This document shows positions 9,115 through 13,719 of a stretch of 64,000 bases of DNA, piece after piece. The DNA lies in the NCBI GenBank assembly GCA_963729715.1, contig CAVSPA010000003.1, positions 256,001-320,000 on the forward strand, given 5' to 3'. A program made the position numbers and the translations under genes. The DNA comes from an uncultured delta proteobacterium (GTDB lineage: Bacteria > Desulfobacterota > Syntrophia > Syntrophales > UBA2185). The notes under the pieces are model-generated. The model was given only the letters and a program-made list of their open reading frames with translations, was not told where the DNA came from and made no database searches. Position 1 is the first letter of the stretch. Each line of letters begins with the position of its first letter.

Positions 9115-9300
9115 CTACCAAACTGCAACAAAGCCATCCGTTCGCGATTCCGTTGCACCGGCCAGTACACCTTCACTGTTTCGCCAGATAATCTGCCCCG
9201 CCTGGGCTGCAAGCGGCTGCGAAGTTGCAACCATGCCTTTCCTGGCGAAAACCATGCTTCGCCGGGACGGATAAGGATGATACAAAGGGTCATATTGCAT
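9115..9300 (-). pseudogene. ggt: Gamma-glutamyltransferase remnant: N-terminus fused in frame to the extreme C-terminus
   Basis: MQYDPLYHPYPSRR...GMVATSQPLAAQAG (GGT N-terminus) joined directly to QIIWRNSEGVLAGATESRTDGFVAVW (GGT C-terminus). Confidence 0.8.
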
Positions 9301-9346
9301 TTTCTTCAATCCTTTATAGAAATTTTCTATACAGGCTTCCTGAGGC

Positions 9347-10819
9347 TTATACGTATCCAAGCCACTTCCAGTATGTGGCCCCTAAGAGAAGAATGACGAG
9401 ATAGGCGATGATTGTTAAAGGAATGCCTGTCCGCATGAAATCTTTAACTTCAAATGTTTCTGTGCTGTATGCCACCATATTTTGTGGCGCATTTACCGGC
9501 AAGATAAACCCGAAGCTCACCACGTACTGTAAAATCATTGTCATGCCCCATACGTTCATGCCCGCCATCTTTACCTCCTGCAATACCGAAATCACAATCG
9601 GTATCATAGCTGACGCCAAAGCGGTGGCACTGGCAAACCCAAGGTGGATGATAATGAGGAAAGCGGCAAGGACAGCCAGAATTGTCAAGGCAGGCATGGT
9701 CTGTAAGCCAAACCAGGTGACAATCATTTTAGCCAGCCAGGCAGCGGCTTTCGTGGAAAGAAGAGCCGATCCAAGGCTTATGCCTATCCCGAACAACATC
9801 AGAGTACCCCAAGGGATTTTTGCCTGTGCTTCTTTCCATGTCATTACACCTACAACAGGCATCAGCATGATGGCCACGGCAGCGAGGGTCGTAGAGGCGG
9901 TATCGAAATTGTGGAGGACCATTTCGGTAGACCAGAAGAATAGCAGTGTAAGCGATACAGCGAACAGCTTCTTCTCGTTCAGTTTCATAGGACCAAGGTC
10001 AGCCAAGGCTTTAGCGATAGTTTCCCGGCTGCCTGGGATTTCCTCGGTGTCAGGCGGCATGACCTTCATCAAGACGTAATACAAGACCACAGACATAATC
10101 ACGGCGAAGGGAGCGGCGGCAATAAACCATTCGAACCAGGTAATCTGTTTGTTAAGAAGTTTATCAATAAAGCCGATGGCAACCATATTTTGTGCGGCTG
10201 CCGTTTTGATACCGACATTCCAAATACTATCAGCCTGGGCGGTGGCGATCATCAGGACGCCGGCAAATTTGCTCTTTTTATCCACATTAAGCGCCAGGAT
10301 AATCCCCATTACAATAGGAACCAGACAAGCGACCCTTGCGGTTGTGCTGGGAATGAAGAAACTGAGAACGAAACCCACAAAAATTACTCCAATCAGAATA
10401 CGGTTAGTCTTCGTCCCTATTTTAGACAGGATGGATAAGGCGATCCGCTTGTCGAGGCCGGTCTGCATCATCGCGGCGGCGATAAACAGCGCCCCGCCCA
10501 CTAAGGCAGTCGCGGGGTTGCTGAATCCGCCCAATGCCAGGGAGAGACCCTTGGAAGTTCCCATGACGCCCTTGGGATTGGCAACATCGGGTGATGTGCC
10601 GAGCAGGAAGACCATAATCGCCAGGATTATGGCGGCGCTGATCGGGTAGGAAACAGCCTCGGTCATCCAGATTATTATCGAAAAGATAAGCATGGCGATC
10701 ATTCTCTGACCCGCTACCGTTAGTCCTTCCGGCGTCGGCATTGCAATGATCCCCAATAACACAACAACACTGATAATAAGGCCATAGCGCTTGCTGAAGG
10801 AATCCTGTTCTGCTTTCAT
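9347..10819 (-). CDS. DASS-family sodium-coupled anion (dicarboxylate) symporter
   Basis: IWMTEAV, IPSTTAR, ASATA, LPVNAPQN, DFMRTG; many TM helices. Confidence 0.88.
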   Translation of the reverse strand: MKAEQDSFSKRYGLIISVVVLLGIIAMPTPEGLTVAGQRMIAMLIFSIIIWMTEAVSYPISAAIILAIMVFLLGTSPDVANPKGVMGTSKGLSLALGGFSNPATALVGGALFIAAAMMQTGLDKRIALSILSKIGTKTNRILIGVIFVGFVLSFFIPSTTARVACLVPIVMGIILALNVDKKSKFAGVLMIATAQADSIWNVGIKTAAAQNMVAIGFIDKLLNKQITWFEWFIAAAPFAVIMSVVLYYVLMKVMPPDTEEIPGSRETIAKALADLGPMKLNEKKLFAVSLTLLFFWSTEMVLHNFDTASTTLAAVAIMLMPVVGVMTWKEAQAKIPWGTLMLFGIGISLGSALLSTKAAAWLAKMIVTWFGLQTMPALTILAVLAAFLIIIHLGFASATALASAMIPIVISVLQEVKMAGMNVWGMTMILQYVVSFGFILPVNAPQNMVAYSTETFEVKDFMRTGIPLTIIAYLVILLLGATYWKWLGYV

Positions 10820-10959
10820 AATTAACTCCCTCTAAAAAAGTTAATTGACCCACGGCTGATATTGTTACCATATTTTTATATAGAGTTCTGTAGTTATTTT
10901 GATTATCACAAATTGTAATCTGTACTATTTCTCTATGCGATGAGGTGAGGATAAGTAGG

Positions 10960-11379
10960 GTATGCCGTGTAAAACGTATGACTAGTCGGTTAAAGTCCGA
11001 CGGTGGGAGTTCTGTAGTTCGCCCACGTAGCTGGAGGGAAGTGTTAAGGGTAACCTGAAGCATTAAGTTCCCTGACAAAGGTTCCTATAGGGAGTCGAGC
11101 AAACCTGCGGGTCGCAGCGTGAGCGAACCTAGATGTAGCCTCAAAAATCACAATGGAGTTGTCGACCCTCTCCTACACAGGGGAAGACCGGAGCATCTAT
11201 CCTGACGAAAACCACCAGAACCGATAGATGGACTTCCGTGGTAACAGGGGTGACACGCAGGGGCAGCCAGACGAGAATGAACGCGGGAGACCCTTGTCGA
11301 TGCTGCGAGAGCGGCAACTGGTGGATATAAGGAAACGAAGTTTCACTGGGTCGGCACGGGAGTCGGAGTTGCCCATAGT
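10960..11379 (+). mobile_element. Group II intron A (outermost): DI, DII, J2/3 and the start of DIII only; interrupted by intron B
   Basis: 5' GTATG; GTCGGTTAAAGTCCGAC DI motif; EBS1 loop CCTAC (11172-11176) complementary to upstream GTAGG (10955-10959); GTCGGAGTTGCCCATAGT DII/DIII junction. Confidence 0.75.
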
Positions 11380-12296
11380 GTGCGCTGGGCAGCGCACTGA
11401 TCAGGAAGGTTAGAGTCCCTCTGGCACCCGGATGAGGGGTGTCATATCCAAAGGCGGGGGTAACGCCTCGCTGGACGCGGAGAACAGATAAGGAGAACCC
11501 TAAATAGGGCACGAAGCCGGAAACGGTGGAAACAGACAAGGGGATGCACCTAAGTTTGATCTCTGTCGACAGACAACCGGAGGACAGGGTGTCCATCGTG
11601 AGATGGAATCCGAAGGGTTTGCGGAGAAATACCGGGCCGTAGTCGAGGGAGCCATCCCAAGGACGAACCGGTCGGCCAAGGGTGGGGCAAGGTCGAGCCT
11701 GCACTATGGAGGCGAAGGCGTTCTCATCCACCCGCCGCACCAGGGTGTTTGCGGGCGGCATGGTAGGGAAGATCAGTGAGTGACCCCAGGAGGACTCACA
11801 TGGTTTCCGGGTGGCACCGGAATAAGTGACCCTATAAGCATAAGCGAAGTGGGAAGCGATGCCATGTGAGTAGTCGGACAACCGAATAATACCTGAAGCA
11901 CGGTGAAAGCCATGTGACCGAGGAATCGGCAGAAGAGTGATCTGGGGAAGGCGGTTGACAAGGGTGGTCGGGGCGAAACGAGAAGCGAGATAAGGAAGGA
12001 TGATGACGAGGATAAGTTCCGTCAGTGAAAAACCCATAAGTGATCATTCGAGGAGACTCGTGGACTGGATCAAACCGACCGGTGGAAGGAAGGCCCACTC
12101 ATTAGTGGACAAGGTTTACAAGATGAAGAAGAGCCGATCTTCGATCCGGTATTCGAGGAAGCCAACTTCGGGTATCGGAAGGGGAGATCATCGAAAAATG
12201 GGTCTTGTGAATCTTGTATCGCTAATACCTTCTATCACATCTGCCAGAAAGGCAACTTTTGTGAAAGCCGGATGCTGGAAAACTGCATGTCCGAAT
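11380..12296 (+). mobile_element. Group II intron B: DI-DV with internally deleted RT ORF; interrupted in DV by intron C
   Basis: 5' GTGCG; EBS1 ACTATG (11703-11708) pairs with IBS1 CATAGT (11374-11379); RT fragments HSLVDKVY / EPIFDPVFEEANFGYRKGRS / GLVNLVSLIPSI; DV AAGCCGGATGCTGGAAAACTGCATGTCCG at 12265-12293. Confidence 0.85.
12000..12245 (+). pseudogene. Remnant of the intron B reverse transcriptase/maturase
   Basis: N-terminal segment, an RT-2a-like segment in another frame and a C-terminal segment joined by deletions; no YADD. Confidence 0.75.
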
Positions 12297-13100
12297 GTGT
12301 GTCCAGCGAAGGCTGGTATGTTCAGCAGGAGTTAGTCCTGCCGGGGAAAAAGACAGAAGCCCCGTAGCTTGGATAGCAGGGTGGCGGGAAACCAAGACTC
12401 TGAAGCCTATCGACAAAGCCACCGAAAGGGTGGTTGCGAGTTACCAGGCCGTAACGAGAGTGAACGCAGAGGTGGCCCCGAAAGTGTGAAGCCCCGGAAG
12501 CCGAGCCTGCATCCGTAAGGCGAAGGCAAGATGAACAGACGAAAACTGGATGATACGTTTGATTCATTCCGGCGGGGTGATAGCGACAGCATGGTAGCAA
12601 GGACAAACCAAGCAACTGGAGAAGCCCTCCTCGTCCCAGGGAGAAATCTCTGGAGCAAGGTAGATTCTATAACCGTGAACAGCGGGAAGTGGATCGAAGG
12701 CGAGAGGGTGGCGGATGGGTTCGTAAGAGCGATGAACCGGAGTAATAGCCGGGGAGCAAAGGAGCCCTGCTGTTAATGATCTTCCGACAACACTGGGAGG
12801 TAAGGGCGAAATGATGAAGGCGCCCGTTAGTTTACAGGACCTGAGGAGGAAGATGTACTTAAAGGAGAAGTCTGAAAAGGCGTGGTGATTCTGCAAGGAA
12901 CCGCTGTGGTTTCGGCTGGGACAGGTGGAATAGGGACTGATTATCAGGCCTGAAAGCGCTGCCAGACTGATAGGTCACATAAACCTTTAGGAGAAGTTAA
13001 CAGGAAAGCATAGTGCGGGAAATCCGCATGCTATGATTGACGAGGCGGGGGCTGGAAACGTACTGAAAGTGCTCAGTGACGCGCCAGTCCTCGACCCTAC
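12297..13100 (+). mobile_element. Group II intron C (innermost): complete DI-DVI, ORF-less, 804 nt
   Basis: 5' GTGTG; DV AAGCATAGTGCGGGAAATCCGCATGCTATGATT (13006-13038) with AGC triad; DVI ending GACCCTAC with bulged A at 13094 and terminal AC. Confidence 0.9.
12811..12950 (+). pseudogene. Remnant of the intron C reverse transcriptase/maturase
   Basis: MMKAPVSLQDLRRKMYLKEKSEKAW* F(W) N-terminus fused near 12893 to a C-terminal ARNRCGFGWDRW segment. Confidence 0.7.
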
Positions 13101-13146
13101 GACAAAATTCTTGCACCCGACGGATCGAAAGTCCGGTACAGCACCT

Positions 13147-13719
13147 TCAGTAGAAAAGTTCTTTGATAAGGACACGACCGGAAGGGTCGAAAAGAAAGCC
13201 CTCCATCTTCAGTAAGGCCCGTTTCATTTCGATACCGCCCTGATATCCGCCCAGTGTTCCGTCAGAGCGAATGGCACGATGGCATGGTATTATGATCGGA
13301 AACGGATTGGTAGCCAAAGCTCTGCCTACGGCGCGTGCACCATAGGCATCACCGAGATGATTGGCGATCCGATGATATGTACTCACACTGCCGCGCGGAA
13401 TTCCATGTTCAGCAAGCAAGACCCTTTGCTGAAATTTCGAGCATAGATCCAAACGAACAATATCGAGAAAGAAGTGGACGTCTTCGCCCGTCAGGAATGC
13501 TGCAATCTGGTCGGCAACAAAATCAACCTCGGCGCAGGAAGAAGGTATGAGATCGGGAAAGGATGTCTGGACAAGCTGCCTGGCCGACACTTTGGGCTTG
13601 GAAAGCAAGGCACGCCAGATTTTCGGCTGACCTCGATGTACTTGCCAAAGGACGGCTACCGAACCGAAGGGTGTCCTGCGAAGGCAGTAGGATGACGGGG
13701 TGTTTTCTGTCTTCTTCAT
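13147..13719 (-). CDS. ogt: Methylated-DNA--protein-cysteine S-methyltransferase
   Basis: IPRGSVSTY, ARAVG, NPFPIIIPCHRAI, LGGY motifs. Confidence 0.9.
   Translation of the reverse strand: MKKTENTPSSYCLRRTPFGSVAVLWQVHRGQPKIWRALLSKPKVSARQLVQTSFPDLIPSSCAEVDFVADQIAAFLTGEDVHFFLDIVRLDLCSKFQQRVLLAEHGIPRGSVSTYHRIANHLGDAYGARAVGRALATNPFPIIIPCHRAIRSDGTLGGYQGGIEMKRALLKMEGFLFDPSGRVLIKELFY

Follow-up and report, generated by a model that had tools for sequence, protein, structure and literature searches.

A probable fossil nest of three group II introns, truncated on its 3' side, in a gene-free gap of a bacterial draft genome

The insertion of group II introns into one another is already known as a concept. 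Work by Dai and Zimmerly from 2003 reportedly concerns, to judge by its title, archaeal homing into the open reading frames (ORFs) of related introns, in domain IV (DIV; intron domains are abbreviated below as DI to DVI). The present analysis deals with a stack of three group II introns, named A, B and C from 5' to 3', which fills positions 10960-13100 of the window, by which we mean the whole stretch of 64,000 nucleotides (nt) analyzed (contig CAVSPA010000003.1 of assembly GCA_963729715.1, positions 256,001-320,000). This locus is, with good confidence, a fossil three-level nest which arose through three retro-insertions, each specific for its site, and whose 3' side was afterwards truncated. 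A triple stack, as described in an earlier note on this DNA, is not without precedent: in Methanosarcina acetivorans, up to five nested introns arise by repeated homing into other introns and are pruned by homologous recombination (Zimmerly & Semper 2015, PMC4424553). In a twintron (one intron nested inside another) of Trichodesmium, the inner intron lies in DI (PMC4649490). The part of the present case which deserves attention is the homing pattern at the level of lineages, rather than nesting itself.

Three introns and their insertion sites

The elements of the stack are listed below (EBS1 and IBS1, exon-binding and intron-binding site 1; IEP, intron-encoded protein; RT, reverse transcriptase).

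10955-10959, plus strand: IBS1 (GTAGG) for the insertion of A, where the original 5' exon ends
10960-11379, plus strand: intron A, which retains 420 nt from the 5' end of an A-type mini-intron without ORF, spanning DI to a DIII-like segment, from RF02003 and comparison with copies
11170-11178, plus strand: EBS1 loop of A (CUCCUACAC), in a hairpin GAC-CCU-loop-AGG-GGAAG homologous to those of B and C
11373-11379, plus strand: IBS1 for B (CCATAGT), within A
11380-12296, plus strand: intron B, a B-type intron with deleted ORF, from 5' GUGCG through DV, lacking DVI
11703-11709, plus strand: EBS1 of B (ACUAUGG), a hairpin loop in the RF02001 alignment
12000-12226, plus strand: remnants of the IEP of B, with the N-terminus from 12000 and an RT motif at 12131-12226
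12266-12296, plus strand: decayed DV of B, with two mispairs in the AGC-triad helix
12297-13100, plus strand: intron C, a C-type intron with deleted ORF, from 5' GUGUG to 3' ...CCUAC, DI-DVI present
12503-12526, plus strand: EBS1 hairpin of C, with EBS1 AUCCGU at 12511-12516
12811-12948, plus strand: remnant of the IEP gene of C, with two deletion joints (blastx)
13007-13037, plus strand: DV of C, with G.A for the conserved G.U in the triad helix (folding and comparison with genome G012)
13041-13100, plus strand: DVI of C, whose bulged A (13094) is 7 nt away from the 3' end (folding)
13101-13146, no strand assigned: right flank, non-intron, tail of the methyltransferase locus

The four boundaries put forward in the earlier note (10960, 11380, 12297 and 13100) are all confirmed by independent copies in other genomes. 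Its view of three distinct non-coding introns was also correct: the longest stop-free frame of the plus strand measures 113 codons, no intact RT gene is present in the stack, and blastx finds RT remnants only. The motif GAG/GAC-CCT-loop-AGG-GAAG, which had been read as an EBS1 hairpin, proved to be one in each of the introns: at 11165-11187 in A, at about 11694-11717 in B and at 12503-12526 in C. Three DI and two DV matches to Rfam models had been expected; two solid DI matches were obtained, together with one weak DI and one weak DV match seen under permissive filters, the cut-offs being 49 bits for RF02003 (gathering), 32 bits for RF02001 and 40 bits for RF00029, the DV model. A, B and C belong to separate lineages.

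Intron A begins with GUAUG and matches RF02003 at 10983-11122 with 84.1 bits. A-type copies at unrelated sites begin with the same GTATGCCGTG, seven of them behind GTAGG and one behind GTAAG; the IBS1 GTAGG is complementary to the sequence CCUAC in the EBS1 loop of A, and a 5-bp run ending at the junction occurs at 0.44% of random window sites. A genus mate, G003, shares the left flank up to 10959 and continues with unrelated DNA, providing an empty site for A. A-like copies were searched in 40 related genomes, and the similarity of A to these and to a second, 100% identical copy in the source assembly (G000, contig C18:44029-44448) ends at 11379, in nine places. Past the equivalent of this position, the A-type sequence continues with ACCGCTTG... 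in all six loci read (L001, L018, L019, L021, L022 and L024). Complete A-type introns, found in G004, G003 and at two loci of G012, are ORF-less, measure about 700 nt (the 420 nt seen here, about 190 nt of DIV, DV and DVI) and finish with ...CTCTACTCTAC; in the complete copy L018, DV/DVI scores 46.4 bits against RF00029, and a version of the element in G001 encodes an RT/maturase. A is a fragment of a member of this group II intron family: in the window it stops at position 420, lacking DIV, DV and DVI, or about 285 nt, of which about 190 nt are DIV.

Shorter A-type pieces are also found. In the source assembly, 5' fragments with an exact GTAGG|GTATG junction are cut after about 90-125 nt (C7:199271-199381, C18:16851-16966, C18:27260-27349 and C13:10393-10482), and genus mates likewise hold many 5'-terminal A-type fragments. 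The survival of 5' ends with loss of the 3' side is the opposite of what abortive reverse transcription should yield.

B relatives were searched in 21 other genomes of the family, where none was found, and then in 300 genomes of the order, which contain three: G201 (contig C156, 92%), G105 (contig C183, 90%) and G116 (93% over 256 nt). All three start at the base equal to 11380. The copy in G201 is 2026 nt long and contains an intact IEP of 440 amino acids (aa), whose N-terminus matches the remnant at 12000 of the window and which, by reading, displays YADD and other RT-type motifs; blastx of the window remnant matches the RT region, aa 124-158, with E=0.001. Rfam matches to B are below threshold, both for DI (RF02001, 22.4 bits at 11592-11779, compared to 29.3 bits for the G201 copy) and for DV (RF00029, 16.3 bits, from 12263 on). 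The DV of B carries a G.A and a C.A mispair, and its fold has a z of -1.3, 22 of 200 shuffled sequences folding equally well. Relatives possess both DV and DVI, which together score 38.3 bits against RF00029 in G201, while B lacks DVI. A hybrid DV, in which the 5' strand of B would have been fused by deletion to the 3' strand of A, was considered and discarded, the 3' strand UCCG being, by eye, compensatory to CGGA of B itself.

The EBS1 of B does not vary between the copies of the window, G201 and G105, and all seven of its positions form Watson-Crick pairs with CCAUAGU, the seven final nucleotides of A; a run of six pairs is found at 0.05% of random window positions. In G201 and G105, B-type introns end with DV-UGA-DVI...CCGACCCGAC|ACCG..., matching the continuation of A-type introns given above, and the G201 locus is a complete twintron, with B inside an A-like intron recognizable by an outer RF02003 match, an outer IEP and outer DV/DVI. 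A metagenome scan with the B-type 5' end retrieved 44 loci, two of them too short and 42 with at least 30 nt upstream, representing 33 distinct flanks. In all 4 genome copies and in 42/42 metagenome loci, the B-type 5' end is preceded by ...RTAKT and located about 12-14 nt past a GGAGUCGGA-like element, against a background frequency of 4.8% for this motif. Counting G.U pairs, EBS1 can form seven pairs in 14 of the 42 loci, six in 27 and five in one. Because the upstream motif is shared by all 42 metagenome loci, the B lineage appears to reside always in a single place within other group II introns, a DIII-like segment. The break in A falls exactly on this insertion point.

Intron C is better preserved than its hosts in extent. 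Its DI matches RF02003 with 129.3 bits (12323-12459), and full-length C-type introns, in G012 and G006 (1944 nt) and at three loci of G137 (1944-1945 nt), begin and end at the bases equivalent to 12297 and 13100. The window copy is colinear with those of G012 and G006 save for two deletions, of 1097 nt at 12893/12894 and of 44 nt at 12939/12940; the joints were placed by piecewise alignment to G012 and G006, a three-way MAFFT alignment having misplaced the ORF deletion. By blastx, what is left of the IEP corresponds to residues 1-27 and 385-408 of the C-type protein, which measures 427 aa. In full-length relatives, C-type and A-type IEPs match TIGR04416 (380 and 403 bits, respectively), contain RVT_1 and GIIM and lack an endonuclease (En) domain. 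No match to the C-type IEP was found in the source assembly at E<=1e-60; its intact introns of other families, with IEPs of 473 and 438 aa, encode proteins 32-37% identical to the A-type and C-type ones.

The earlier description of C as complete holds for its extent, which reaches through DVI, and fails for its DV, where G.A replaces G.U. The segment 13004-13100 folds with -40.1 kcal/mol (z = -4.1) and the intron ends with ...UAC; Rfam models, RF00029 included, find no DV/DVI of C in a 141-nt scan even at E<=10, whereas intact C-type DVs score about 36 bits (36.6 in G012, 36.2 in G137). The EBS1 hairpin of C was assigned to 12503-12526 because EBS1 covaries with the 5' exon between copies (AACCGU/ACGGUU in G012, AACGUU/AACGUU in G019). 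A previous candidate, AACCGU at 12672-12677, was dropped when alignment placed the hairpin at the covarying position.

C starts directly after the DV of B (12296/12297). All five full-length C-type introns for which both flanks could be read (G012, G006 and three in G137) lie between DV and DVI of an A-type intron, these twintrons reading ...ACGGTT|C|TGATGAGGGG...CTCTACTCTAC, and a truncated C-like 5' piece occupies the same A-type DV/DVI position on contig C18 of the source assembly; a C-type copy in G019 sits elsewhere. Within the order, seven of eight C-type 5' ends follow a DV. A scan over all genomes, limited to one per species, returned 42 loci, 40 of which were scanned with Rfam models and match RF02003 with at least 72 bits. 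By inspection, 14 of the 42 are directly behind a DV: six of these contexts are A-type by identity, five are supported by Rfam D5 at E<=1 and three by reading only. RF00029 is insensitive to a DV parted from its DVI, and Rfam D5 models saw five of the 40 loci (E<=1); a rigid DV template was tried as a classifier of upstream contexts and abandoned, as it missed canonical 34-nt DVs. Five further loci, all in one metagenome-assembled genome (MAG) of Pseudomonadales (L076, L079, L082, L084 and L094), are directly behind a perfect 8-bp hairpin, ATTCCTGC-NNNN-GCAGGAAT or variants, a setting reminiscent of the way class C introns target stem-loops; one locus lies behind another C-type 3' end and the rest are at other sites. 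Since 14 of the 42 loci follow a DV, homing behind this domain is a habit of one C sub-lineage, and not of the whole C-type family.

Some observations on C-type introns stand apart from this question. Across the complete twintrons read, the loop CCUCGUC (12629-12635) is complementary to the start of the host DVI (GAUGAGG/GACGAGG, 3'-exon positions +2 to +8), and in the window, not in G012 or G006, also to the start of DVI of C itself; it may represent a 3'-exon contact or a chance match. Distant relatives, with IEPs 53% identical (L035 in G093 and L048 in G122), are found at a conserved site ...CGCTGGCAGGTGG| inside what, by eye only, reads like an IS4-type transposase gene (YRCRWQVE), another mobile-element target. 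On one contig of an Acidobacteriota MAG, L100 and L106, about 2 kb apart, include a C-type 5' end behind a C-type 3' end (...CCCGACCCTAC|GTG...), a head-to-tail tandem.

The missing 3' side and the history of the locus

The Russian-doll arrangement proposed in the earlier note stands as a history of nesting, and does not stand as a closed structure, the 3' parts of A and B being absent after C. The sequence following 13100 is GACAAAATTC..., and corresponds neither to DVI of B (UGAGCGGCGG...) nor to the 3' part of A. Homology to contig C33 of G004 starts exactly at 13101, with unrelated DNA upstream, and neither G003 nor G004 has the two flanks of the stack next to each other. No A-type or B-type DVI is present on any contig of the source assembly, however small, and searching it with the G003 sequence past the empty site and with what precedes the right flank in G004 returned nothing relevant. 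Outer intron sequence is seen on both sides of the inner intron in G201, G012, G006 and G137, and on the 5' side only in the window. As to homing sites, B pairs at seven of seven positions and occupies the same site as all 46 copies examined; C lies at the position found in 5/5 twintrons, with four pairs out of six.

The following history is proposed. An ORF-less A-type mini-intron first inserted behind GTAGG, upstream of a gene of the Na/sulfate symporter family. A B-type intron then reverse-spliced into A after CCAUAGU, using EBS1 ACUAUGG, at what seems to be the standard home of its lineage, and a C-type intron followed right behind the DV of B, another intron's DV/DVI junction being the apparent standard home of its sub-lineage. 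B and C next lost their RT genes by internal deletions. Finally, DVI of B, about 285 nt of A and the original 3' exon of A were lost, bringing the 3' end of C against the tail of a methylguanine-methyltransferase-type gene. The idea of insertion of intron into intron, and of a chain of hyperparasitism, advanced in the earlier note, fits the lineage-typical homing sites, DIII-like for B and DV/DVI for C.

The first four steps are demonstrated by comparison with other copies; the cause of the fifth is inferred. The leading candidate, with a probability somewhat short of even, is recombination of C with a second C located at 13100/13101, which would have deleted the sequence in between. C is indeed a mosaic: its 5' part is closer to G006 (568/597 identities) than to G012 (539/597), and its last 161 nt are closer to G012 (153/161) than to G006 (142/161). 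A plain deletion is a rather unlikely cause, and other causes share the remaining probability.

Several points weigh against the fossil nest or parts of its history. Rfam recognizes B below threshold only (22.4 bits with RF02001, 16.3 bits for DV). EBS1 of C (AUCCGU) forms four pairs out of six, two of them contiguous, with the DV end of B (CCGAAU); as this pairing is poor, the placement of C is judged by position and not by pairing. The assembly contains neither a second C copy nor a reciprocal recombination product, and the mosaicism of C could predate the locus. Independent support for the joints, in sequencing runs consulted as contigs, each containing at most 41% of the sampled words, is limited: no independent contig among those listed bridges the A/B junction with at least 31 nt on each side, the B/C junction is covered by one contig (run X2) which reaches just 26 nt to the left of it, a search of the metagenome collection for the 34-mer spanning exactly B|C gave no match, and the sole difference-free contig over 13100/13101 comes from run X1, which is possibly the source sample. 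On the pairing of C, the genuine twintrons of G006 and G137 are equally imperfect; moreover, the DV of B may have mutated after the insertion of C, since its 3' strand mispairs with its own 5' strand.

Among the alternatives, the one which survives best, though improbable, accepts a real nest and regards its right side or its left flank as an assembly chimera between near-identical intron copies, the true genome carrying the 3' halves. The source assembly is a draft of 19 contigs with an estimated contamination of 6.5%, A is 100% identical to the copy on contig C18, C looks like a mosaic, and run X1 has contigs interrupted at 11380/11381 as well as a second context behind a C-type 3' end; coverage holes of X1 at 12146-12388 carry no weight. 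However, C is unique in the assembly, the sole other C-like piece being 85% identical over 210 nt, A-type or B-type DVI sequences are on none of its contigs, and one contig of X1, though maybe not independent, covers 12980-13250 without differences. It is far less probable that three unrelated intron fragments came to lie side by side, without nesting, in a permissive intergenic spot. This genome does contain many 3'-truncated intron fragments at unrelated sites, but the A/B junction features a 7-bp EBS1-IBS1 match at a site universal in the lineage (46/46 copies), the B/C junction is the usual site of the C sub-lineage, and A breaks exactly at the insertion point of B. Least credible of all is an intact, potentially functional doll, from which C, then B, then A would be spliced to restore a continuous transcript: the three 5' ends are in the right order, C has a full domain set and intact two-level versions exist in G201, G012, G006 and G137, but a conserved G004-type flank takes the place of DVI of B and DIV-DVI of A after 13100, these lost parts are nowhere in the assembly, and the DVs of B and C are mispaired and devoid of G.U, respectively.

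If the locus is a fossil nest, as we hold, neither A nor B should be excisable, because DIV-DVI of A and DVI of B are gone from both locus and assembly. On the same sequence grounds the whole stack is predicted to be inert, since no catalytic core can form in either A or B, the DV of C is damaged and no cognate RT is found in the genome.

Flanking genes and other elements of the genome

The 2.14-kb gap lies between two minus-strand genes, and the intron stack is antisense to both:

9350-10819, minus strand: gene of the Na/sulfate symporter family (PF00939)
13150-13719, minus strand: gene with a 6-O-methylguanine methyltransferase domain (PF01035)

The symporter gene and its upstream region (9195-10912) are duplicated, with 99.8% identity, on the opposite strand of contig C5 of the source assembly (429118-427401), and the two copies part ways 47 nt ahead of intron A. 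Most genus mates match the left flank just to 10912, and G003 to 10959.

An antisense ORF of 298 aa (11141-12037, minus strand) straddles the A/B junction, and so extends over two different mobile elements. It matches no Pfam family, is probably a spurious consequence of the purine richness of the sense strand, and could be listed by gene callers as a hypothetical protein.

Other group II introns are present in the same assembly. A fourth RF02003-type lineage, with 5' GTGCGCCACGAGG..., is found on contig C13 (400-960, minus strand; 81.7 bits) and runs into the contig end. On contig C4 (224900-228570) two introns from different families, each encoding an RT, follow one another head to tail. The one with the 473-aa IEP has its DV at 226650-226721, and the next RT, split in two frames, starts from about 227451.

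Significance and comparison with known systems

At the locus itself little is at stake: the stack is inert intergenic debris, left blank by ORF-based annotation, and it accounts for the 2.1-kb gene-free gap and for a break of synteny. The lineages involved may be of wider interest. We tentatively propose, as a possibility still slightly below even chances, that B-type introns, together with one sub-lineage of the C-type, are dedicated to living in other introns, the guest disabling the host ribozyme until it is spliced out. If so, an obligatory splicing hierarchy would be combined with self-renewing safe target sites, across several bacterial phyla, and the window would preserve the decayed record of a full three-level chain. 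By analogy with class C introns and terminator hairpins, C-type targeting may read the DV hairpin itself.

Two RT-encoding lineages which apparently live inside introns, at fixed core positions, provide natural material for the study of ordered splicing, guest before host. They could also serve to examine how En-less introns choose their targets, by hairpin or by base-pairing, and how homing of introns into introns sustains retroelements without harm to host genes. On the practical side, intron pipelines based on DV or on RT miss such elements or misplace their bounds; for the pipeline of Miura et al. 2022, the outer intron of twintrons is, by its own statement, undetectable (PMC8919778).

Among described systems, the Methanosarcina arrays are similar to the present locus in their repeated site-specific homing, in the mix of ORF-less and RT-encoding introns, in the absence of host coding exons and in removal by recombination (PMC4424553). 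They differ from it in that insertions are found here at DIII-like and DV/DVI sites, on three levels, in a stack open at its 3' side and in a bacterial host. In Thermosynechococcus elongatus, as here, an ORF-less family homes to one conserved site in another family, RTs act in trans on ORF-less copies and EBS/IBS pairing marks retrohoming (Mohr et al. 2010, PMC2882425). The insertion site, however, lies there between the first two ATGs of the ORF in the outer DIV, and two levels are reported; because of its location in the DIV ORF, the outer core is left unsplit (PMC2882425), while guests of the present type split it.

The organellar cases are more distant. In Euglena chloroplast twintrons an inner intron interrupts an outer one and must often be spliced first (PMC4424553), and plant mitochondria contain zombie twintrons, in which the inner introns are degenerate and survive in fossil form (Zumkeller et al. 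2020, PMC7049729). Both, unlike our stack, are organellar and located in expressed genes, and the outer intron of zombie twintrons still splices (PMC4424553, PMC7049729); in the present stack it is the outer introns which are dead, for want of their 3' halves.

Class C (IIC) introns (PMC4424553) resemble the present families in part, by an En-less IEP, the nearest solved relatives being the GsI-IIC RT (E=2e-54) and 7uim (E=2e-46), by recognition through a short IBS1, a conserved IBS2 not being obvious at A-type sites, and, for C-type introns, by a location directly behind a stem-loop, either a DV (14/42) or a perfect 8-bp hairpin (5/42). In contrast to class C, no terminator or attC context was seen for the stem-loops involved here, and the DV triad is AGC. 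IIC introns typically have a CGC triad in DV.

Searches of the open-access literature, mainly of listings and abstracts, turned up no report of an intron homing into DIII of another intron in bacteria, or into its DV/DVI junction. The guest's fixed position in the ribozyme core of its host and the apparently obligate intron-dwelling of the B lineage seem to be the features by which this system differs from those known so far.

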